This document shows positions 20,879-31,957 of a stretch of 64,000 nucleotides of DNA, piece after piece. Under the pieces are notes generated by a model. The model made no database searches. It was given only the letters and a program-made list of their open reading frames with translations, and was not told where the DNA came from. Numbering within the stretch: position 1 is the first letter of the stretch; every line of letters starts with the position of its first letter. Source of the DNA: an uncultured Succinivibrionaceae bacterium (GTDB taxonomy: Bacteria > Pseudomonadota > Gammaproteobacteria > Enterobacterales > Succinivibrionaceae); assembly GCA_944389835.1 (NCBI GenBank), contig CALXNU010000003.1, positions 730 to 64,729 on the forward strand. The letters run 5' to 3'. Position numbers and translations under genes: made by a program.

Positions 20879-21346
20879 TTAAGCTTGTAAGTTTAAAATA
20901 TGTAAACCTTGAGCTTGGGTACTGCCTTTATCGTTATAGGTCATATTCTTGGTATTTCTATCGCGAATTTTCATCAATACGTCAGTTAAACGCTTGTTTG
21001 CACCCATAAAGTAGCGAATTAACTTACCATTAACCTCATTGCGTCTCTTGCACTCAATAAGCTTAATTTTAATCACTTCAACTTGTGGCAAGTAATCAGC
21101 CTCAAGGCGCTTTTTATCTGGGTGTAGACGAATTTTTTGATCATTACCTGCAATCTTGCCCATAATTTCAGCTTTCTTTGAGGCAAGAGCAGTAATTAAC
21201 TCAGTATCACGGCCTTTTAGAGCATTATGCTCTTTATAAAGGATCTTACCTACCTCGTCTAAAAGCAGGTTTTGATCTTTTAAATACTCAATAAGCGGTC
21301 TTATTTGATTATTAGAAACCGGCTTTTTTTCAAATTTCTTAAGCAT
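20879..21346 (-). CDS. flgN: Flagellar chaperone FlgN family
   Basis: 155 aa. The pattern ..LIECKRRNEVNGKLI..(20)..NMTYNDKGSTQAQG..LQA matches the FlgN C-terminal half. It follows flgP as in Vibrio. Confidence 0.75.
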   Translation of the reverse strand: MLKKFEKKPVSNNQIRPLIEYLKDQNLLLDEVGKILYKEHNALKGRDTELITALASKKAEIMGKIAGNDQKIRLHPDKKRLEADYLPQVEVIKIKLIECKRRNEVNGKLIRYFMGANKRLTDVLMKIRDRNTKNMTYNDKGSTQAQGLHILNLQA

Positions 21347-21358
21347 AATTCTCTCCCC

Positions 21359-21820
21359 TTAAAAAGCTCCACGCATGTCATAGAGATTAAAGACCACTTG
21401 AGTGTCAAGCTCTAACTCTGTGACATATGCATCTGCTAATGGATACTGTCTTATAACTCGAGCACCCTGCACAATCGCATCGATCTTCGTGGTGACCGAG
21501 TCTGATCTTTCTTTAGTATCAATTAGCACTGTTGATCCTTTTATTCTTAAGCCGTAAAGCTGCTCGGCAAGCTCACGATAAGCCTCAATCTTTGAAGCTC
21601 TCATGGCTTGAATTTGTTTTTCAGTCTCAGAAGGACCCTTTTGACGACTTACCACTGCATAGCCTGAAGCACGTAAAATTGGAAATTCATCCGGCTCATT
21701 CACCCCAGTATCGGTGTAATACAAATTCTTACTTAAGGTAGTAGATGTCAAAAAATTGGTTCCACAACCTGCTACGCTTAAAGCTAAAAAAGCAAGCAGC
21801 GCTAAATTTAACTTTCGCAT
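21359..21820 (-). CDS. flgP: Flagellar lipoprotein FlgP (LPP20 family)
   Basis: 153 aa with lipobox LSVAGC. ILRASGYAVVS...IQAMRASKIEAYRELAEQLYG matches the LPP20/FlgP pattern. Confidence 0.8.
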   Translation of the reverse strand: MRKLNLALLAFLALSVAGCGTNFLTSTTLSKNLYYTDTGVNEPDEFPILRASGYAVVSRQKGPSETEKQIQAMRASKIEAYRELAEQLYGLRIKGSTVLIDTKERSDSVTTKIDAIVQGARVIRQYPLADAYVTELELDTQVVFNLYDMRGAF

Positions 21821-21828
21821 GTTCCCTC

Positions 21829-22773
21829 CTAAAGCAAGTTAATATCATCCATTCTTAAATATTGGCTTTGATCTACCACATCGCGAGATAGACGATTGCC
21901 TTGCAAGTAAGATCCCGCCTCATGAATCATTGGATCTTCATCATGAACATTGTCAGAATTGACATTGCCACGGGAGGCAACAGGTCTTACGACGTCACTT
22001 TTTTGAATATCAGAACCCGTTAAATTCTGATTTTTAGGAGCGACAGCAGTTGAAGTGGTGGTGAAATCTTGATATTTACCTTCACGGATCTCTTGTTGTA
22101 CTTTAGCCCGTGAGGCTTTTTCATCTACTTCACTTGGAGTCAAATATGCTTCAATATCCCCAAGAGAGCATTGTTTTTCCTTGGTTCTATAGCAATAAGG
22201 TAAAAGATCATATGGAATAAAACCGGTGGCTGTTGACTGCACAATGTGATTTTCCACATCTACAATTCTTGCAACTAAAACCACACCTTGCTCATTGCGT
22301 GAGATAGTTCCACTTAAGACATTGGAAATTGAGGCTTCTTGTAAGATCTGTCTATAATCACGCGAATAAATGTACTCACCATCTTGAGTGACTTGCATAC
22401 TGCCAGTTAACTTATACTCAAAAACCCCAATGCCGCGAGAGCTTAACTCGTGAGTGAACATTTCAGCCAAAACACGGCCTAAATGTCCTGCATTTTCATA
22501 GGTATCGGTATCGACAAAAGAGGTAATTGCAACGTCTGGCAAGACTAGATCATCAATATCTCTGCCACGTTTTAAATCAAGTAAATGACCTTGTTCTAAA
22601 GCCTTTCTGACATAAAGATGATGGTAAAGCTCATCTGCCATCTCATGAGAGACTTTACTTATTTCCATTCCTTGCAAGTTATAAACTTTGCCGTAAGGGG
22701 CAGGATCTGCCGCACAACCTGCAAGCGTCACCAAACTTGCTAAAATCAAGGTTTTCAGTACATTAATTCTCAT
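21829..22773 (-). CDS. flgO: FlgO family outer-membrane/flagellar lipoprotein
   Basis: 314 aa with lipobox LVTLAGC. The core VAITSFVDTD..GRVLAEMFTHELSSRGIGVFEYKLTG..LSGTISRNEQGVVLVARIVDVENHIV is FlgO-like. It has a C-terminal low-complexity extension. Confidence 0.8.
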   Translation of the reverse strand: MRINVLKTLILASLVTLAGCAADPAPYGKVYNLQGMEISKVSHEMADELYHHLYVRKALEQGHLLDLKRGRDIDDLVLPDVAITSFVDTDTYENAGHLGRVLAEMFTHELSSRGIGVFEYKLTGSMQVTQDGEYIYSRDYRQILQEASISNVLSGTISRNEQGVVLVARIVDVENHIVQSTATGFIPYDLLPYCYRTKEKQCSLGDIEAYLTPSEVDEKASRAKVQQEIREGKYQDFTTTSTAVAPKNQNLTGSDIQKSDVVRPVASRGNVNSDNVHDEDPMIHEAGSYLQGNRLSRDVVDQSQYLRMDDINLL

Positions 22774-22859
22774 CCTGAGCCTCTTTTGTTCTTATAATTT
22801 AGAAAAGAGCATAAAATTTTGGCACCTTTCTACTTTATTTCGCATATTGTCACGATTTT

Positions 22860-22875
22860 TGCAAGGTATGTGCCA
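22860..22875 (-). promoter_or_regulatory. Sigma54 promoter for flgO-flgP-flgN
   Basis: The minus strand reads cCTGGCACataccTTGCAaaa, a perfect TGGCAC-N5-TTGCA, about 85 nt upstream of the flgO ATG. Confidence 0.7.
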
Positions 22876-22897
22876 GGTTAAGCGTGGAGATGTAATT

Positions 22898-24079
22898 ATG
22901 TTCACTTTTTCGTCTTTTTTTAAACGGACTTTGTTTCTTCTAAGTTTAGGATTACTCATTCCTCTTTCAAGTGAGGCTGCCTGGTATGAGGCTTTTGGCC
23001 GCGCTGCGGTTTTGGACAATGATGTTGATGGGGCAAGAAAAGCTGCCGTCAATGATGCTGTGCGCAATACCTTACTTGAGGCAGGGGCTAATATTAAAGT
23101 CTATCAAAACTATGAAAACGGCACTTTATCTTCAGAGTCCATGGAGATTAACTCTGACTACCCAGTTAAAAAAGTAACCGTCCTTGAAGAGCAACGCACT
23201 TTAAATGCTGTACAAGTTCGGGTGCGCGTTTATATTGATGATGAAAATATCTCCCGTTGCACTATAGGAAAAGTTAAAAAATCAGTCCTACCGGTTACTT
23301 TCCGCTTTGAAGATAATTTAACCTATGGTGGTGCTCAAGGCCTTGAGAGTATGCCAATTGAATTATCCCATATGATTTTTGATCGTATCGGATCATCTGC
23401 GGCCATTCTCCTGCAACCTGAGCGTGAACTTAACTTCTTTCGCGACAACAACTCCTCTTTATCCTATGATGAAATAAGAAGTCTTGATGCCCTCTCACGC
23501 CAAGAAAATGTGCAATATGTTATTACAGGTACCATCCGCTCTCTTGCCGCCTCCGATGCAGGACCATCTCCTATTGATAAGCTTTTTTACTCCAAAACAA
23601 GACGCATTGATTTTGCAGTCTCCGTCTATGATGCCATGTCAGGTAGAGTAGTCTTAAGACGCCACTATGAGGGTGAAAGTGATTGGGACTACAAACAAGG
23701 CGATTATGTTGATATTAGATCTGAGCGCTTCTTATCCTCATCCTATGGTCAAAGATTACTTGAGCTTGCCTCCTTTGCCGCAGAAGATATTGTAACTTCC
23801 ATGCAATGCTTGGCACCAAGTGCCAGAGTTATTGATACTCGTGGCGATAGCATCTTAATTAGTGTTGGACAAAGCTCTGGAGTTAAAAAAGGCCAAGAGT
23901 TTTCTTTAACTCACTTCTCAGAGTATCCAGATCGTCAAGGCAAAATTTATCAAAGTGCTCAACCTTCAGGTGCTTTATATAAGGTAACTGATGTTTATTC
24001 ACACTCTGCGCGTTTAATGCCATCTGGTGGTAATCACTTATTAAATGTTTCAGCCGATGACATTGTGACCTTGCAATAG
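22898..24079 (+). CDS. flgT: Flagellar assembly protein FlgT (H-ring)
   Basis: Signal peptide then SEAAWYEAFGRAAVLDNDVDGARKAAVNDAVRNTLLEAG (FlgT N domain), and a C-terminal ..ARVIDTRGDSILISVGQSSGVKKGQEF.. domain. I chose the ATG at 22898 (GGAGA SD 7 nt upstream) over the track TTG at 22847, which would overlap the divergent promoter. Confidence 0.8.
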   Translation: MFTFSSFFKRTLFLLSLGLLIPLSSEAAWYEAFGRAAVLDNDVDGARKAAVNDAVRNTLLEAGANIKVYQNYENGTLSSESMEINSDYPVKKVTVLEEQRTLNAVQVRVRVYIDDENISRCTIGKVKKSVLPVTFRFEDNLTYGGAQGLESMPIELSHMIFDRIGSSAAILLQPERELNFFRDNNSSLSYDEIRSLDALSRQENVQYVITGTIRSLAASDAGPSPIDKLFYSKTRRIDFAVSVYDAMSGRVVLRRHYEGESDWDYKQGDYVDIRSERFLSSSYGQRLLELASFAAEDIVTSMQCLAPSARVIDTRGDSILISVGQSSGVKKGQEFSLTHFSEYPDRQGKIYQSAQPSGALYKVTDVYSHSARLMPSGGNHLLNVSADDIVTLQ

Positions 24080-25111: not shown

Positions 25112-26869
25112 TTGCAAGACTTTAAAAATTTGCTCAACAAACTGCCAATTGCTGACTCATCTTTTTTTAATCTGCGCATGAAAAATGCCATCTATGTTGA
25201 CAAGACAAAATTTGTCTACAATCTTGCAATAAACGATCAACCTCGTGTTCTTACTCGCCCGCGCCGTTTTGGCAAAAGCACTTTACTCTCTACCCTAAAA
25301 GAGCTTTTTTTACATGGTGTGAAACCTTTTATAGACCCCGATACAGGCAAACTTCACGAATCGTGTTTTAAAGGCCTTGCTATTGAAAATTTGTGGACTG
25401 ATCCTGAAGAATATCTCGTACTACAGCTTGATTTTCGTGATCTTAATGAACAATGCTCAAGCATAAAAGACTTTGAGCTTAACCTTCTGGATGAGCTTGA
25501 TGCTTTTGCCCAAGAACATCATCTTACTTTATGTAAAGAGGCACTAAGTCTTAATTCTAAATTCCAAGATCTTCTTTTAAAACTTCCAAAGCACAAGCTT
25601 GTGCTACTTATTGATGAGTATGATGCCCCATTTCTAGCCTGTCTAAATAATCAAGATAAGCTACAACAAACAACACTTTGGATGCAAAATTTTTATAGCG
25701 TCATTAAAAGTTCTCAAGAAAAATTTCGTTGTATTTTTGCAGTTGGGATTACACCACTGCAAAGTCTAAAGCTTAGTACTGCGGTAAGTAACTTCTCTGA
25801 CATTTCTTTTGACCACAATTTTGCCACCTGTTGCGGTTTCACACACCAAGAACTTAAGCAATATTTTAAGAACCATTTGCTTTTCGCTACAGCAAAAAAC
25901 TCTCACTGTACTCTAGATACTGTAACCTCTGAGCAAATTGAGCATTTTCTAGATGATCTAGCACTTTGGTATGACGGCTTTTGTTTTGATCAAAAACAAA
26001 GCAACAAAGTTTTTTCTACCTGGTCAGTTTTACGCTTTTTCAGTGATGAAGATGCGCTACTGCAACCATATTGGATGGCAGAAAGAAGCGTGTTAATGCC
26101 CTCTCTACTTAAAAATACTATTAAGCGCCTAAATTTACCTAAACTTTGGCCTACACTTGCATCAGGTGAGTTTAAATTAAGCTTTGCTGAATTTATGGAA
26201 GCAGGTTTATTTTCTCCACAAGAATCAAATCATTATGCTCTTTTTTACCAGACGGGATACTTAACTCTAACTCGTCCTTTTTTAAACGGCGGAAAAATCT
26301 CTTTAAGGCTTACTAATCAAGAAACCCGGATCGCTTTTGCTACCTTTTTAGCTGAGCGTTTGTACGCAACTTCTGACAACAATACCCCGCAACTTATGGG
26401 TCCTGATTATGCAGCAAAAGCACAACAGGTACTTGCAAGCTTAGATGCAAACAAGATTAAGCAACTTTTTAGCAGTCTTTTTGCAACTCTTCCATATCAG
26501 CACTATCCTGTCGTCAATGAGAGTATAGTTTCAGGGTTATTGGCTTTTTATTTAATAGGAGCAGGTTTAGCACCACACTGTGAGGTGAGTGAAAACTTGG
26601 GAAGAGCAGATGCTGAAGTTAACTTGCCTCAAAGCAATATTACTTTGGTTTTTGAGTACAAATACGAACAAAGCGCAGATCCTGCCATCTTAGATACCAA
26701 ACTTCAGGAGGCGATAGCTAAGATAAAGAGCCGTGATTATGGCAATCACGCAGGCAATTTAGCGAAAATTGCTCGCTTTGCCTTAGTGTTTTGCGGCAAT
26801 GAGAAAGTACGAAACATCGCGCGTCTTTCTTTAGTTGACGTGCTAAACAAAAATATCGTCAAAAATTAA
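25112..26869 (+). CDS. AAA-ATPase-like plus PD-(D/E)xK (PDDEXK_9-type) family protein, paralog 1
   Basis: 585 aa with a TTG start after the AGGGGA SD. The N-terminal RPRRFGKSTLLSTLKELF P-loop block and hhhhDEYD Walker B (LLIDEYD) are present. The C-terminal GRADAEVNL...LVFEYKY gives the D..ExK nuclease motif. Confidence 0.8.
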   Translation: MQDFKNLLNKLPIADSSFFNLRMKNAIYVDKTKFVYNLAINDQPRVLTRPRRFGKSTLLSTLKELFLHGVKPFIDPDTGKLHESCFKGLAIENLWTDPEEYLVLQLDFRDLNEQCSSIKDFELNLLDELDAFAQEHHLTLCKEALSLNSKFQDLLLKLPKHKLVLLIDEYDAPFLACLNNQDKLQQTTLWMQNFYSVIKSSQEKFRCIFAVGITPLQSLKLSTAVSNFSDISFDHNFATCCGFTHQELKQYFKNHLLFATAKNSHCTLDTVTSEQIEHFLDDLALWYDGFCFDQKQSNKVFSTWSVLRFFSDEDALLQPYWMAERSVLMPSLLKNTIKRLNLPKLWPTLASGEFKLSFAEFMEAGLFSPQESNHYALFYQTGYLTLTRPFLNGGKISLRLTNQETRIAFATFLAERLYATSDNNTPQLMGPDYAAKAQQVLASLDANKIKQLFSSLFATLPYQHYPVVNESIVSGLLAFYLIGAGLAPHCEVSENLGRADAEVNLPQSNITLVFEYKYEQSADPAILDTKLQEAIAKIKSRDYGNHAGNLAKIARFALVFCGNEKVRNIARLSLVDVLNKNIVKN

Positions 26870-27033
26870 AGATCTTTTCTTAAAGCATAAGCTTTAAAAT
26901 CGCGTCTTTTAGCCGAAAATAAAAGGTAAGATAAAGATCTTTTCCGCAATCCGTGCATGTTAAGTATCTTTTTTGTCCAAGCTTAAGCTACAATTAGCTT
27001 GGGTTGTGGTGTTTTTGGCAGAAAAAAATAAAA

Positions 27034-30000
27034 ATGAGTGAGATTAAGCTTCAAACTACTAATGATATTAAGTTAGATGAAAAGCGTCAGCAAGAGGCTC
27101 AAAAGAATGCCCCTGAAAGTGCACGCTTCAATCGTCATGCTACCTCATCTTTAATTGAGGTTCTCTCCTCGCAACAAGGCATGGTCAATGAATCCTTAAA
27201 TCGCACTTTAGGCAAGCTCAACACTGCCTTAGATCATCTTTTAAAAGGACAAAGTGATAACTTAGCCCAAGGTGAGGACGCTCAAAGCTTACAAAAGCTC
27301 TCTTATGATGTCATCTCTCGTGATGTTAAATTACAAGAGCGTGTAGCCCAAGCTTTATCATCGCCAAATCGCCTCATTAGATCACGTGACGCCCAAGACT
27401 CACTTAAAAACTCTTTTGATAATTTGCCAAAAGCCATCAAAGAAGACTCAACAGGCCCTCTTCTTTCCCGTGCCGTGCTTGAAAGTTTAGTCACTCTTGC
27501 AGATAAAGATGCCATTGGTGCAGGACTTGAGCGTGATTTGAGCTTAAAGAAAGTCTATATTAGTGACTCCCGCCCGCAAGGTCGTGCCACTTTAGCCTCA
27601 GGGCGAATTTTAAATGCATCTTTGGCCTATATTGAAAGCAATCAACCTAAAGTTTTAGCAACTTTGCAAGAGTCAAGTGAGGAAAATACTTCCCAGAAAG
27701 CTTCTACTCAAAACACGCAAAATCCTCAAGATGAAGATTTAAACCTTGAGCTTAAGCGCTCTAAGATGAGTACTGCGCAAGTTATGACGGAGTATTTAAA
27801 AAAGGCACTTGAGGAATTCCCTGAGGATTCAACCTATCTTGATATCTTCAAGAAAAATGCCCAAGGAATAGATGGCAAAGACAATCGCAATTCTCAAAGA
27901 ATTCGCGAAGTCATTTACAATGCCTCACAAATGGCTAAAACGCGCAATCTCTACCCAGGCGCTCCTGATCCTACAGTTGAAACTGCCGAGGAGTCTTTTG
28001 CGGTAAATGATGAGAATACTTTTAATAAAAATGCCTTAAATTTAAGTGCCGATCCTGATGCGCGCTCTTATATTGATGATCCTAAGGATAAAACTAATGT
28101 TGAAGGCTCACGCATGAGCTTAGCTGAGCTTTCAGCACGCGCTGCCAAACTTCAAATGCAATTTACGCGCGAAAGACAGCGCATGGTTCAAGAAGGACAA
28201 TTACCCGATCCTGCCACCATGCCCCCTATTGATGAGAGTATCCCGCAAGGTGATGGCTCACGCAATTATCATCAATCAACATTGCGCATTCCAAGAAGCT
28301 CTGTGGCAGCTTTAGCTCAAAATCCTTTAGTTCAGGCCTCCATGCCACCTAAAGCGCAAAATGATGTGACTCAATCCTTAGAGATTGAAGCCTCCAAACA
28401 AGAGCTTTTAAAAACCCAGGATGAGCTTTTAAAACTTAAAGCTGAGCTTGCCAAAGTTCAGGCTGAAGCCTTGCAATCTGCTAAAGAGACGGTAAATGCT
28501 CAACTTCAAACTCAAAAAGAGCTTAAAGCTCAAGCTGAGGCTTGGTATCAGCGCATTCAAGAGGCAGGTGCTATGGCCAAAAGCACTATTGATGCGCTAA
28601 AACAAGCGGCCAACTCAGCACTTAAAGTGACCGAGCACATCCCTCAAGAGACAAAAGCATCCCAAACTCTTGAGCCTTTCGTGCAAGCTCAAGTGTCAGA
28701 CGATCTTGCACTTAAAGAAAACCTAAGCAGCCCCTCTTTAAAGCTTCAAGCTAAAGAAGAGGCTCAAGTTCAGACAAGAGATCCTAAGCTTTACTCACAA
28801 GTAAATCTAAATCAAACTCAAGAGCCTTTAAAAAATCCTCAAGAAGGCTCTCAAGAGATTGTTTTTGAGCAAAAGCCACAAAGTGCTTACCTTAACTTAC
28901 AAGCTCAAAGTGACAGTGAAAATTTTGAGCTTAAAGCCCCTCAAGAGAGCATTACTCAAGAGCTTTTAGATAAGAGTCAGCAACAAAGTACCGTCTTTAC
29001 TCAAGATGGGGACGTATCTTATCCACAAGAGACTAATCTTGATCTTAAAGCTCCAACAGATAAGGCACAATTTGCCCCACAAAGTGCTACTTTAAATGAC
29101 AGTGCAGTAACTGAAAAAGCCCCCAAGGCTCCTGCAAATCCTACGGCACCTTTTGATGATCTTAATTTTGACAGCAGTGAAAACTCACTTGAAGAGCGTT
29201 TATATCGCTATGTAGGTCAAGCTAAGATCTCGGATACTGCAGATGAAATCAAAATTGATACTGCTTTAAAGCTTGATAGCAAAGAGCTTAATGAAAATAA
29301 GCCTGCCTTAGAGCAAGATGGTATAAAGCAAGTTTCAAACAAAGAGCTTACTTTAAGCTCTCAAGATGAGGCTTTAAAAGATGAATTTGAGGTTATAAAA
29401 GCTGATGAAACAAAGGCCTCAGACCAAGAAGCAAATATAGCTTATAAGAGTCAACGTGAGATTCAATCAAGCTTAGAGGAGCAAAAAGAGGATTTAAGCT
29501 TTAAAAACTTACAAGATAAAGCTCAAAGCTTTAAACAAAAGCTTGAGGAACCAAGACCTGTAAGTTTAGAAAAGAATGCAGTGGCAAGTGAAGCTAAAGA
29601 AATTGTAAAGCCTGAAGTTTCTGATGCTAAACCTCAAGCCCCTGCTCAAACTCAAGAGAGCAAAGCTCAAGTTGAAAATCAGCCTAAACAGCCTGAGACT
29701 TCAGCTCAAGAGCAAAAGCTTTACAGTGAAACTTTAAAAGAGCAAAAACTTAAAGCCCAAGAGATAGCAGAAAGTGCCAAGAAAGCATCTCAAGAGGCCT
29801 CAAAACAAGCCCTTGCAGATGAGGCTCAAGTAAAAGAGGAGAGTCTTCAAAATAAGGCTTATGATAAAGCTTTATTGCAAGCTCAAGAGGAAGCACAAAG
29901 TGTGGCTTTAAATCAGGCTCAAGTGCAAGATGAGCTTGTAAAGACCCAAGAGATACAAGTTCAAGATAAGCTCCAAACTCAAACTAAGCTTGAAAATAAA

Positions 30001-30774
30001 GAAGAGCGCGTAGAGTTTAAAGAACAGCAAGCGCAAAAAGCCCAAGAGCTTGAAACTATTCAAACTCAAAATACTAAAGATAAGGTAAGTGAGAGTGAGG
30101 CGCAAAAAAATTCTGCAACCACAACTGCTCAAAGTACTCAAGAGGAAAGCTTAGAGAATGATCATGTAGAGTTTAAGATCCCAAATCTAAACCCAGATCT
30201 TAATCTTTCGGTTGCAAATCCTAATGACACCCAAGATGAAAGTGCCAATGAGGAGTTAAATGTAAGCGATGAGCAAGCACATTTAATGGCCTCTTTAGCT
30301 CAAGCCTCAAAGCAAAATCAAGAATTAGTAAGTCTTGATAACAATGAGGATACTTTTGAGTTAAATCGCCCCACTAATCCTCATTTAAATGTCAACTTAG
30401 ACATTGATGATCCGCTTGAAAGTGGTAGTGCTGAAGAGTTTTCTAAGCTTTATCAAAATATTGCGCAAAAACAAAGTGCAAGCGAAGTAGATGCAGAAGA
30501 ACTTCAACAAAATCCTGCACCAAAGGAGAGTAAAGGGTCTGAAATTAAGATCAATCCTCAAGACGTGGCAAGCTTAATGAGCGTAAAACCTAGTGACGAT
30601 CTTGAAGATGATGATACCCTACAAGGGATTAAGACCCCACTTGCCGATGAGAGCACTTTAGAAGAGGAGATTAAAGCGCCAACTGGTCAGGCTGCCCAAG
30701 TAAGCGATGAAACCTTAAGTGAAAATGAGGTTAAACCAGGCTTCTTCTCAAGGCTTGCCTCTTTTTTTCGCTAA
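27034..30774 (+). CDS. Giant acidic Q/E/K/A-rich low-complexity protein with C-terminal amphipathic helix
   Basis: The ORF is open from 27004 (TTG); the first ATG at 27034 gives MSEIKLQ... (1246 aa). About 230 N-terminal residues have ordinary composition, followed by about 1000 aa of Q/E/K/A/L/S-rich sequence with coiled-coil-like runs (ELLKTQDELLKLKAELAKVQAEALQ). It ends ..KPGFFSRLASFFR. Confidence 0.75.
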   Translation: MSEIKLQTTNDIKLDEKRQQEAQKNAPESARFNRHATSSLIEVLSSQQGMVNESLNRTLGKLNTALDHLLKGQSDNLAQGEDAQSLQKLSYDVISRDVKLQERVAQALSSPNRLIRSRDAQDSLKNSFDNLPKAIKEDSTGPLLSRAVLESLVTLADKDAIGAGLERDLSLKKVYISDSRPQGRATLASGRILNASLAYIESNQPKVLATLQESSEENTSQKASTQNTQNPQDEDLNLELKRSKMSTAQVMTEYLKKALEEFPEDSTYLDIFKKNAQGIDGKDNRNSQRIREVIYNASQMAKTRNLYPGAPDPTVETAEESFAVNDENTFNKNALNLSADPDARSYIDDPKDKTNVEGSRMSLAELSARAAKLQMQFTRERQRMVQEGQLPDPATMPPIDESIPQGDGSRNYHQSTLRIPRSSVAALAQNPLVQASMPPKAQNDVTQSLEIEASKQELLKTQDELLKLKAELAKVQAEALQSAKETVNAQLQTQKELKAQAEAWYQRIQEAGAMAKSTIDALKQAANSALKVTEHIPQETKASQTLEPFVQAQVSDDLALKENLSSPSLKLQAKEEAQVQTRDPKLYSQVNLNQTQEPLKNPQEGSQEIVFEQKPQSAYLNLQAQSDSENFELKAPQESITQELLDKSQQQSTVFTQDGDVSYPQETNLDLKAPTDKAQFAPQSATLNDSAVTEKAPKAPANPTAPFDDLNFDSSENSLEERLYRYVGQAKISDTADEIKIDTALKLDSKELNENKPALEQDGIKQVSNKELTLSSQDEALKDEFEVIKADETKASDQEANIAYKSQREIQSSLEEQKEDLSFKNLQDKAQSFKQKLEEPRPVSLEKNAVASEAKEIVKPEVSDAKPQAPAQTQESKAQVENQPKQPETSAQEQKLYSETLKEQKLKAQEIAESAKKASQEASKQALADEAQVKEESLQNKAYDKALLQAQEEAQSVALNQAQVQDELVKTQEIQVQDKLQTQTKLENKEERVEFKEQQAQKAQELETIQTQNTKDKVSESEAQKNSATTTAQSTQEESLENDHVEFKIPNLNPDLNLSVANPNDTQDESANEELNVSDEQAHLMASLAQASKQNQELVSLDNNEDTFELNRPTNPHLNVNLDIDDPLESGSAEEFSKLYQNIAQKQSASEVDAEELQQNPAPKESKGSEIKINPQDVASLMSVKPSDDLEDDDTLQGIKTPLADESTLEEEIKAPTGQAAQVSDETLSENEVKPGFFSRLASFFR
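30762..30768 (+). other. T7 run forming U_UUU_UUU at the last codons of the giant ORF (candidate -1 frameshift site or homopolymer indel site)
   Basis: The codons are GCC TCT TTT TTT CGC TAA. The downstream Flg_hook ORF is in the -1 frame, which is open from 30735. Confidence 0.3.
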
Positions 30775-30800
30775 GTAACGAAAGCCACCCTCAAAGTGGG

Positions 30801-31628
30801 GTGGTGGCACCCTCTACCCCAAATAATGGGCCGATTAAGCCCAATCTTACGGCCTTTTCTGATCTTCTAAGCTCCTTAAATAAAGTGGCCGTAGAAGTTG
30901 AAGATCCGTATTTAAAAGAAAAGGCCCAAAGTTTAATTAATGAGTTAAAAAATCCGGTTAATAATCTTCACACTGTAAATCAATACTTAAGCTTTGTCAC
31001 AGGACCTCTCTCCCCTTCCTCACCATTGGCTATTGCTTTGCATCAATGGGCTTTTATGCTCCTTTGCATTAGATTTGAGCAATTAGGCAAGGAAATAGGA
31101 AGCTTTCTTAAAAATAAAATCAAAGATCCTGAAAGTTTAAGATCAGAGGTTATAAGCTCCAAAAAAGTAAGAGTCGATCCTAAAACTACTACAAGTTTAC
31201 TTGATAGCACGATTGCCCAAGTCGATAGGCTCAAAGAAGAATGTCAGGCTATTGGCAACCTCCCTATCCCAAGGTTTATTCCCATGCCTCCGATGTACGA
31301 TGAAGGACATGACGGGGCTTTGTTTTTAAAGCGCGATGAGGATGATCCAAATAAAACGTGGCATTTGCAATTTTGCTTTGATTTAAAAGATTTGGGCCCC
31401 TTGGAAATTCAAGCGCAAGCTCAATTTCCAAGTATAAAATTGCGCTTTACCTCACCATCTAAGGAGGTTTTAGATCTAACTCAGGCCATGTTGCCACTTT
31501 TAAAAGAGCGTTTACAAGAAATTGGAGTTACCACGCGCTTATCGCTATTAAGACAAGCGCCTATTACCTTTAAAGAAAATCTAAAGGGTCCAATTAGAAA
31601 AGAATCAGGCTTAGATCTTGAGGTGTAA
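30801..31628 (+). CDS. FliK-like protein with C-terminal Flg_hook/T3S4-type domain
   Basis: 275 aa. The C-terminal WHLQFCFDLKDLGPLEIQAQAQFPSIKLRFTSPSKEVLDLTQAMLPLLKERLQEIGV fits the FliK C-terminal pattern (L.L.P.ELG.v.v......l.f......l...l..L...L...G). The start is uncertain: GTG with no clear SD, and the first Met is residue 86. Confidence 0.65.
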   Translation: MVAPSTPNNGPIKPNLTAFSDLLSSLNKVAVEVEDPYLKEKAQSLINELKNPVNNLHTVNQYLSFVTGPLSPSSPLAIALHQWAFMLLCIRFEQLGKEIGSFLKNKIKDPESLRSEVISSKKVRVDPKTTTSLLDSTIAQVDRLKEECQAIGNLPIPRFIPMPPMYDEGHDGALFLKRDEDDPNKTWHLQFCFDLKDLGPLEIQAQAQFPSIKLRFTSPSKEVLDLTQAMLPLLKERLQEIGVTTRLSLLRQAPITFKENLKGPIRKESGLDLEV

Positions 31629-31630
31629 TT

Positions 31631-31957
31631 ATGGATCGTCGCTATAAAAATGTTACTGAGGCTGTCGCTTTATCCTATGATGAAGACAATCCTAAAAGCG
31701 CCCCTTTTGTGGCGGCTAAAGGTGATTTTGAAAGAGCTCAGGCAATTGTGGAGATGGCAGAGGAATTAGGTCTTTACATTCATCAAGATGAAAAGCTTTT
31801 GCGGGAGCTTAAATCTTTAAAAGAAGGTGAGGAAGTGCCAAGCCAGCTTTTTGGAGTGATTGCCACAATTTTAGCTTTCAGCTATATCCTGCAAGGTAAA
31901 ACCCCAAAAACTTGGAGAAGGCGCGATGGCACTCGCGCCATTAACCTTAAAGCCTAA
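31631..31957 (+). CDS. Stand-alone FlhB/YscU C-terminal (post-cleavage) domain protein
   Basis: 108 aa. AVALSYDEDNPKSAPFVAAKGDFERAQAIVEMAEELGLYIHQDEKLLRELK..EVPSQLFGVIATILAFSY aligns with the FlhB segment following NPTH. A GAGGTG SD lies upstream, and the start is 2 nt after the preceding stop. Confidence 0.8.
   Translation: MDRRYKNVTEAVALSYDEDNPKSAPFVAAKGDFERAQAIVEMAEELGLYIHQDEKLLRELKSLKEGEEVPSQLFGVIATILAFSYILQGKTPKTWRRRDGTRAINLKA

Follow-up and report, generated by a model that had tools for sequence, protein, structure and literature searches.

A giant fliK2 gene of Succinivibrionaceae changes reading frame at a conserved slippery T7 run: a hypothesis of recoding

The locus described here raises the question of whether two adjacent open reading frames (ORFs) specify two proteins or a single one. 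It lies in a 64,000-nucleotide stretch of DNA from an uncultured Succinivibrionaceae bacterium (contig CALXNU010000003.1 of assembly GCA_944389835.1, positions 730 to 64,729; hereafter the window) and comprises a 1246-codon ORF, an ORF of 286 codons in the -1 frame that overlaps its end, and flhX, a gene for a short paralog of the flagellar export protein FlhB. Numbering is that of the window, and all the features of the fliK2–flhX locus given below are on the + strand. A preliminary description of the first ORF had seen in it a large acidic protein with a C-terminal amphipathic helix, reminiscent both of HubP/FimV-type polar landmark proteins and of type III ruler proteins. Its homologs identify the 1246-aa ORF as the 5' portion of a giant fliK2 gene and not as a stand-alone family. 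How the rest of the protein is made is a less certain matter: we lean towards programmed -1 ribosomal frameshifting, or the insertion of one U by RNA polymerase, as the source of a full-length FliK2, and we present this recoding as a well-motivated hypothesis, not as a demonstration.

A search of 5.8 billion proteins yielded 27 relatives of the 1246-aa ORF. The closest ones (P0003, 56 % identity; P0004–P0007, ~49 %) are of similar size and end in ...SFFR, while the remoter ones are 1068–2159 aa long and carry a Flg_hook domain (PF02120) at their C-terminus; one relative is a 1696-aa protein of Anaerobiospirillum thomasii annotated 'flagellar hook-length control protein'. We compared 38 corresponding loci of species-representative genomes, 34 metagenomic ones and 12 taken from genomes related to that of the window. 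Colinear alignment showed that in ~70 Succinivibrionaceae loci (Succinivibrio, Succinatimonas, Anaerobiospirillum and unnamed Succinivibrionaceae) the N-domain, the spacer, a short amphipathic motif and the T3S4 domain are encoded on a single chain, by one ORF of 1250–2250 aa. The order in these fused proteins is an N-domain, a long low-complexity tract, the motif (GGFFKRIMARF or NTLFQRLASLF), a short linker and ~260 aa ending in Flg_hook.

The 1246-aa ORF by itself has no Flg_hook domain (Pfam and NCBIfam matched no family to it), and only a frameshifted product of 1531 aa would carry one. Indeed, the corresponding sequence is found in the -1 frame, in the ORF that extends over 286 codons from the last T of a T7 run (30768..31628) and encodes a linker, a helical sub-domain and T3S4. 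This frame is already open from position 30738 and thus overlaps the end of the upstream ORF; gene callers begin it at GTG 30801. It matches Flg_hook PF02120 in Pfam and aligns over its full length with the C-termini of the fused proteins. In an AlphaFold model of the 286 residues, computed from an alignment of 27 sequences, the C-terminal beta-beta-beta-beta-alpha-beta part had predicted local confidence (pLDDT) values of 66–89, and the best Foldseek matches in the PDB were the T3S4 domain of PscP (5cuk) and FliK-C (2rrl), both with a probability of 1.0. The latter was also the best match of the sequence profile against the PDB, albeit a weak one (E 0.054). The suggestion of a type III ruler protein was therefore essentially right, the 1246-aa ORF corresponding to the N-terminal ~80 % of a FliK-type protein, and the T3S4 domain had escaped notice because it sits in the next ORF, in the -1 frame.

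The other suggestion, a HubP/FimV-like polar landmark, draws on the large size, the acidic and disordered tract, the membrane-targeting-like motif and the link to flagellar genes. However, Pfam, NCBIfam and hydropathy analysis revealed no LysM domain, no transmembrane segment and no FimV C-terminal motif, and the homologs carry T3S4 and pair with flhX. Membership of that family was rejected for want of its defining domains, and we hold a polar landmark instead of a FliK-type protein to be very improbable; a scaffold-like mode of action is a separate matter and may apply.

What happens at the junction between the two frames is best seen from its sequence, which in the window reads GCC TCT TTT TTT CGC TAA (30757–30774). 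The slippery heptamer T TTT TTT (30762..30768) is in the X XXY YYZ phase with respect to the 0 frame (codons TCT TTT TTT), the 0-frame stop TAA (30772..30774) comes one codon past it, and the extension ORF is open in the -1 frame across the run. The split was seen only in the window's own GTDB genus, in four species and one Logan contig: the window's genome (G000), G001 (loci L003/L005), G002 (L006/L079, Candidatus Avisuccinivibrio pullicola, of which L004 is a close relative) and G003 (L080, to which the Logan contig L089 is close). TCT TTT TTT, one codon (CGC, CGG or CAC) and TAA are found in the window, L003, L004, L006, L080 and L089; the stop is at an equal position in all five split sequences, and every one of them has the T3S4 ORF in the -1 frame, uninterrupted across the run. 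A metagenome scan with the C-domain added no split lineage, all the relatives retrieved being distant and fused. A -1 slip after the second TTT would give ...RLASFF-SLSNESHPQSGVVAPS..., which is colinear with RIASFFSGRS and KIASIFSKK of fused proteins, and the predicted trans-frame product (1245 + 286 = 1531 aa) compares with 1483–1540 aa for the Succinivibrio orthologs.

The lineages that share this junction are well diverged, the identity of their C-domains being 46–59 %. Among the amino-acid-invariant degenerate columns of the C-domain and FlhX, only 11 of 146 have the same codon in all four lineages, so that synonymous sites are saturated. On the basis of each lineage's own codon usage, the probability that the residues S-F-F are written TCT TTT TTT is 0.115, 0.114, 0.019 and 0.094, and the chance that the other three lineages match the first is ~2e-4. 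The conservation of the heptamer between species thus exceeds the expectation for synonymous sites. In the fused relatives these residues are encoded by varied codons, and the T7 run is present in none.

Two further explanations were weighed. Insertions and deletions in homopolymers are a common sequencing artefact, and one might regard the split as an assembly error or as a decaying pseudogene without functional consequence; an in-frame stop does occur in the repeat region of one other locus, L027 (see below). Yet the identical frame change is found in five diverged sequences that come from different assemblers and studies, and both halves are open, conserved (46–59 % identity) and free of further disruptions. 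Error or decay is in our view the least probable of the explanations considered, and hardly credible. Alternatively, the run could be a switch: homopolymer tracts are classical contingency loci, and slipped-strand mispairing at replication could interconvert a T7 (split, OFF) allele and a T8 (fused, ON) allele, the latter restoring one ORF exactly. A minority T8 allele would, moreover, be hidden by assemblies. On the other hand, 19 of the 20 distinct members of the protein cluster of the window's species are 1246 aa long, nearly all of the 21 members of the Ca. A. pullicola cluster are 1188 aa long, and the short-form variants of these two species occur on ~100 contigs from independent NCBI, ENA and Logan assemblies, whereas a collection of 15 billion proteins, checked for fused alleles, contained no fused protein with more than 60 % identity. 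Seven bases are also short for efficient switching. Phase variation of this kind strikes us as highly unlikely.

We then considered the RNA downstream of the stop, which contains two adjacent conserved hairpins (30785..30818). In the window, 30785–30790 (CCACCC) pairs with 30799–30804 (GGGTGG), and 30803–30807 with 30814–30818. Hairpin 1 is G+C-rich in all lineages (CCACCC...GGGTGG in three of them, GCCUCCCC...GGGGACGGC in the fourth) and is followed by the small second hairpin. In an alignment of the six sequences, 93 % of the cells pair, as compared to at most 62 % with slid partners, and compensatory changes are seen in two pairs; the linker peptide encoded at the hairpins is not conserved. 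This evidence for conservation of the hairpins is modest, as the very sequences aligned had served to derive the structure. An extended stem starting ~9 nt downstream was found in L004 only, and Rfam gave nothing at the junction except a chance speF match (12 bits for a gathering score of 37). An upstream stimulator resembling a Shine–Dalgarno (SD) sequence (AAGG/GAGG, 8 nt before the heptamer) was also considered and dropped, L080 and L089 having AAGA at this place: AGG/AGA upstream of the heptamer is not a consistent SD mimic.

The hairpins are central to the most serious competing explanation, a true gene fission, in which an ancestral one-base deletion left two halves that are now separate polypeptides, the C-domain being made by termination–reinitiation: a ribosome stopping at TAA would melt hairpin 1 and thereby free the GTG located in its 3' arm. 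The 5' arm starts 10 nt past the stop, which is about the reach of a terminating ribosome, in the window, L003 and L004/L006 alike the GTG is always 33 nt away from where the T7 run ends, and the public annotation shows two genes. Because this geometry suits termination–reinitiation as well, we keep fission as a tentative alternative, though we think it rather doubtful for the following reasons. First, although the T7 run, the stop and a hairpin are retained in L080 and L089, these two have ACG at the position of the GTG and no ATG, GTG or TTG for 34 codons past the run, their first candidate start (TTG/ATG or CTG/ATG) lying inside a block that is aligned with the PLDxL motif conserved in the fused proteins. 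Second, the C-domain GTG lacks an SD sequence (at GTG 30801 the pairing amounts to -0.4 kcal/mol, which places it 48th among the 53 starts of the window); flhX, for its part, is preceded by a good one, GAGGTG. Third, fission does not explain why TCT TTT TTT should be strictly conserved when synonymous sites are saturated. Finally, the ruler and T3S4 parts of canonical FliK are known to work in one chain (PMC6972891). Independent translation of the C-domain thus looks poorly supported by the sequences compared.

The recoding hypothesis has its own difficulties. T7 and A7 runs are not rare, 11 of them being present in the 57.7 kb of coding sequence of the window (the genome is 41 % GC), and a recoding review (PMC5009743) describes U UUU UUU as much less shift-prone than A AAA AAG in Escherichia coli. 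Hairpin 1 begins 14–16 nt past the T7 run, beyond the classical 5–9 nt, a spacing that is unfit for classical -1 stimulators and is to be credited to fission. Three lineages have a conserved GTG 27 nt past the stop, within the 3' arm of hairpin 1, just as a termination–reinitiation device would. Lastly, independent lineages carrying the split number only ~4, and the statistics are accordingly modest. All these points weigh against recoding.

If recoding does take place, most ribosomes would read TCT TTT TTT CGC TAA and stop, releasing a 1246-aa product in which an acidic disordered spacer of ~800 aa joins the helical N-domain to an amphipathic helix at the C-terminus. Some would instead slip by -1 on U UUU UUU, or translate an mRNA to which the polymerase has added one U, and would continue as ...RLASFF-SLSNES... 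through 286 more codons to yield a 1531-aa FliK2 endowed with T3S4, the predicted junction peptide of the fusion being LASFFSLSNESHPQSGVVAPSTPNNGPIK. The T3S4-less 1246-aa form would be more abundant than the 1531-aa form. By analogy with FliK and FlhB, the T3S4 domain is presumed to bind the FlhB-C-like FlhX encoded next.

Since the frame change occurs directly after the amphipathic motif (GFFSRLASFFR, residues 1236–1246, 30739..30771), the un-shifted product would end in a C-terminal amphipathic helix, and the shifted product would keep the motif internal, as in the other members of the family. The preliminary description had likened this end to C-terminal helices of the MinD/FtsA kind. The last 11 residues are indeed amphipathic (hydrophobic moment 0.58, rank 29 among the 1236 windows of the protein), and their hydrophobic residues are spaced i, i+1, i+4, i+7, i+8; spacing and moment fit a surface-binding helix of the MinD/FtsA/FlhG membrane-targeting type. 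The likeness to the membrane-targeting sequences of MinD, FtsA and FlhG consists in the short pattern G-hydrophobic-hydrophobic-x-basic-hydrophobic-x-x-hydrophobic-hydrophobic, the high moment and, in the fused relatives, the flanking basic residues (GKK, GRK or SKK). What did not hold is the terminal position: ~30 fused homologs share the pattern G-[FL]-[FL]-x-[RK]-[LI]-A-S-x-F as an internal element, 306–350 aa from the C-terminus and usually with G/S-K/R-K/R directly after it. Unlike the MinD, FtsA and FlhG helices, the motif is thus internal in almost all family members, and it could serve as a C-terminal anchor at most in the un-shifted product of the split genus. From the N-terminal blocks to the C-domain, no other short element is as well conserved. 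The identity of the amphipathic motif with the 'SGLFLExRL' motif of typical FliK2 proteins was ruled out, hhalign placing SGLFLExRL elsewhere.

A second conserved motif, h-h-x-V-[KR]-P-S-D-[DE]-L-[ED]-D-E-x-T-L-Q, is found in split and fused homologs 60–90 aa N-terminal of the amphipathic motif (residues ~1145–1175, window 30460–30560; instances are LMSVKPSDDLEDDDTLQGIK and VPSDDFNDEHNVTLQAIK) and may serve for binding.

The remainder of the 0-frame ORF (27034..30774) consists of an N-domain and an acidic low-complexity tract. Its start, placed by alignment with homologs, is ATG 27034 (MSEIKL); an in-frame TTG lies upstream at 27004, from which the frame is open. The product (1246 aa, 138 kDa, isoelectric point 4.67) contains 10.6 % E, 10.4 % Q, 10.4 % A, 10.0 % L, 9.5 % S and 8.4 % K, and past residue 200 nearly every 100-aa block is net negative, so that the portrait of a large acidic protein rich in these residues was accurate; both coiled-coil-like strings singled out in it and the terminal KPGFFSRLASFFR are present in the translation. 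The highest mean Kyte–Doolittle hydropathy of any 19-mer is 0.98, hence the protein has no transmembrane segment, as had also been said. Tandem Repeats Finder detected no DNA-level tandem repeat in the gene.

The first ~230 residues had been described as ordinary in composition. They do belong to a structured N-terminal part, whose conserved structure extends, however, to residue ~395, as shown by an alignment of 21 relatives (A2) and by AlphaFold2 applied to residues 1–450. Residues 30–215 (27121..27678) form a family-specific, all-helical N-domain predicted with pLDDT > 90 and kept in the 21 aligned relatives. Additional conserved helical blocks cover residues ~245–305 and 360–395 (27766..28218), with predicted helices at 247–303 and 363–387, disorder being predicted elsewhere in 1–450; the invariant columns of A2 include TYLDIFK and LSELSARAAKLQ..F..ER. 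A further helical block, at residues ~466–550, is common to the closest relatives only. The N-domain profile matched nothing in the PDB by sequence, and a Foldseek search of the PDB with the N-domain model gave generic helical bundles and nothing at E < 0.001. Among 1.84 billion cluster representatives, the profile retrieved only 85 proteins, almost all of 1000–2850 aa, which is why we consider that, as far as these matches tell, the N-domain family is narrow and giant size its normal state.

A candidate sigma-28 (FliA)-type promoter, TAAA-N13-GCCGAAAA, is located at 26895..26919, 115 nt 5' of the ATG. It is weak: TAAA-N11-16-GCCGAWAA matches only once in the 64-kb window, for a chance expectation of 0.35. 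A comparable element is present at equal distance in L003, and none was found in most other relatives, for which reason no weight is placed on it.

The gene that follows, flhX (31631..31957), encodes a free-standing paralog of the FlhB C-terminal domain (108 aa; matches to Bac_export_2 in Pfam and to TIGR00789). FlhX has NVTE instead of the NPTH autocleavage site and begins about where cleaved FlhB-CC begins. It directly follows FliK2 in 84 of 88 loci, and the synteny across ~80 loci reads giant FliK2, FlhX, convergent mrcB (PBP1B), dksA. The argument from a flagellar neighbourhood put forward in the preliminary description was consequently half right: flhX is the conserved partner, and the FlgT, FlgO, FlgP and FlgN genes are not conserved neighbours; in the window they are found 3–6 kb 5' of the gene, separated from it by a tRNA and two accessory genes, and they are near it in no relative. 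We also noted that the gap between FliK2 and flhX is ~25–450 nt in the fused relatives versus 3–12 nt in the split genus, and that flhX (+) and mrcB (-) are convergent and overlap by 4 nt (31954–31957), which leaves no room for a terminator. The upstream genes (20879–24079) encode FlgN (PF05130), a lipoprotein with a weak LPP20/FlgP-like match, FlgO (PF17680) and FlgT (three FlgT domains), and are of the Vibrio-type H-ring/outer-ring kind. A gene for an AAA-ATPase_like + PD-(D/E)XK protein (PDDEXK_9) occurs near fliK2–flhX at varying positions (25112–26869 in the window, 14103–14321 in L006, 8300–9868 in L036, 1504–2613 in L041), which suggests a mobile or frequently inserted accessory gene.

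A Flg_hook protein encoded on the same strand just 5' of a short FlhB C-domain paralog is the arrangement by which a FliK2–FlhX pair is recognized. Among 60 other gammaproteobacterial genomes, 28 had FlhB-family matches, and many of them contained both a 380-aa FlhB and a 90–180-aa FlhX; the gene just 5' of flhX encodes a 400–500-aa Flg_hook protein in all ten gammaproteobacterial loci sampled. An hhalign comparison of the last 330 aa of the giant proteins with typical FliK2 gave a probability of 95.9 % (E 6.5e-9, 246 columns), the homology reaching well upstream of the T3S4 core. Canonical components are encoded elsewhere: contig C25 of the window's genome carries a canonical FliK of 550 aa, with FliL and FliM after it, and contig C30 a 378-aa FlhB frame. 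On these comparisons, the window gene is a giant version of the uncharacterised gammaproteobacterial fliK2–flhX operon.

The window's genome also encodes, on contig C58 (L106, 1–11235), an injectisome-type type III secretion system (T3SS) with SctR (FliP family), an SctQ-like protein (FliMN_C), SctT, a 346-aa SctU and SctO (YscO), adjoined by an SLT transglycosylase, a SpoIIE phosphatase and an HATPase_c_2 kinase (partner-switching-type regulators). The contig ends right past sctO, and no ruler gene of that system was seen on it. A role of FliK2 in this T3SS was set aside, since fliK2–flhX pairs are widespread and belong to a flagellar cluster in Pseudomonas putida.

What the spacer does may be approached through its length. 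The A. thomasii variants (P0009–P0014) are 1344, 1388, 1432 and 1696 aa long and differ by multiples of 44 aa, their spacer being made of tandem 44-aa repeats (EEVKPQNKVPVQT..D..), a length polymorphism that recalls YscP-type rulers. That these variants differ by whole repeats speaks for a length-determining or spacer role; against a role as hook ruler speak the presence of a normal FliK and the length of the spacer, which far exceeds that of any hook. The spacer could be a secreted tape measure, or a cytoplasmic spacer tethered to the membrane by the amphipathic helix. The stop mentioned above lies in a repeat region as well: in L027/L081, from an Anaerobiospirillum sp. metagenome-assembled genome, an in-frame TAA interrupts an otherwise fused FliK2 and a 647-aa frame remains. 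This TAA has no relation to the T7 site and is probably a nonsense allele or an artefact of assembling the repeats.

One may go further and imagine that the conserved recoding signal sets the ratio of two FliK2 isoforms, with a membrane-tethered spacer instead of a tape measure that is secreted. The short, abundant form would then end in a MinD-like membrane-targeting helix, and the rare long form would carry T3S4 past this helix and engage FlhX or FlhB; the acidic disordered spacer would stand at the pole or on the cytoplasmic face of the export gate, and frameshifting would tune the number of copies able to touch the switch. The flagellar export-switch machinery would thereby have its first described recoding event, and the function of FliK2–FlhX a first handle. 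Taken with all its parts, this scheme is speculative, and we would not count on its being correct.

The gene pair is of a known though uncharacterised kind; the papers on fliK2 and FlhX that were searched do not describe the giant architecture, the N-domain, the amphipathic motif or, above all, the conserved frame change. Should slippage be real, it would add the flagellar switch to the injectisome genes in which programmed recoding occurs, and would mean that the public genomes of the genus are all misannotated (a 'hypothetical protein' and a 270-aa 'FliK'). FliK2–FlhX is a pair widespread in gammaproteobacteria and conserved in flagellar clusters, to which the Succinivibrionaceae add three clues: an enormously expanded, length-variable spacer; a conserved MinD-like motif just before the T3S4 region, which hints at membrane contact; and a frame change at this motif, which is a natural experiment on the linkage between spacer and T3S4.

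How does the locus compare with known systems? The nearest is the fliK2–flhX operon of P. putida (PP_4328–PP_4329), which is FliA-dependent and of unknown function (bioRxiv 10.1101/2021.08.29.457346). Both have a Flg_hook protein encoded directly 5' of an FlhB C-domain paralog, with a canonical fliK elsewhere. By contrast, the giant FliK2 is 3–6 times longer than typical FliK2, which lacks its helical N-domain, acidic spacer and MinD-like motif, and the frame split is confined to the window's genus. The giant proteins are built like FliK and SctP (YscP, PscP), with a long flexible linker between the N-terminal part and the T3S4 domain at the C-terminus, and share with them a spacer length polymorphism generated by repeats; they differ from them in that a spacer of 800–2000 aa is far beyond the need of any hook or needle, a 550-aa FliK being already present. 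With regard to recoding, precedents exist in injectisome T3SS genes according to the available part of the review cited above (PMC5009743), and that part gives no flagellar example. The dnaX tau/gamma pair, slippage in Shigella spa13, spa33, mxiA and mxiE, and Yersinia YopN–TyeA have in common with the present case a homopolymeric slippery site and products with a shared N-terminus and a differing C-terminal domain. Here, however, the heptamer is U UUU UUU instead of A AAA AAG and the hairpin is 14–16 nt off; and whereas in dnaX the shifted frame terminates early, in fliK2 it would extend the protein.

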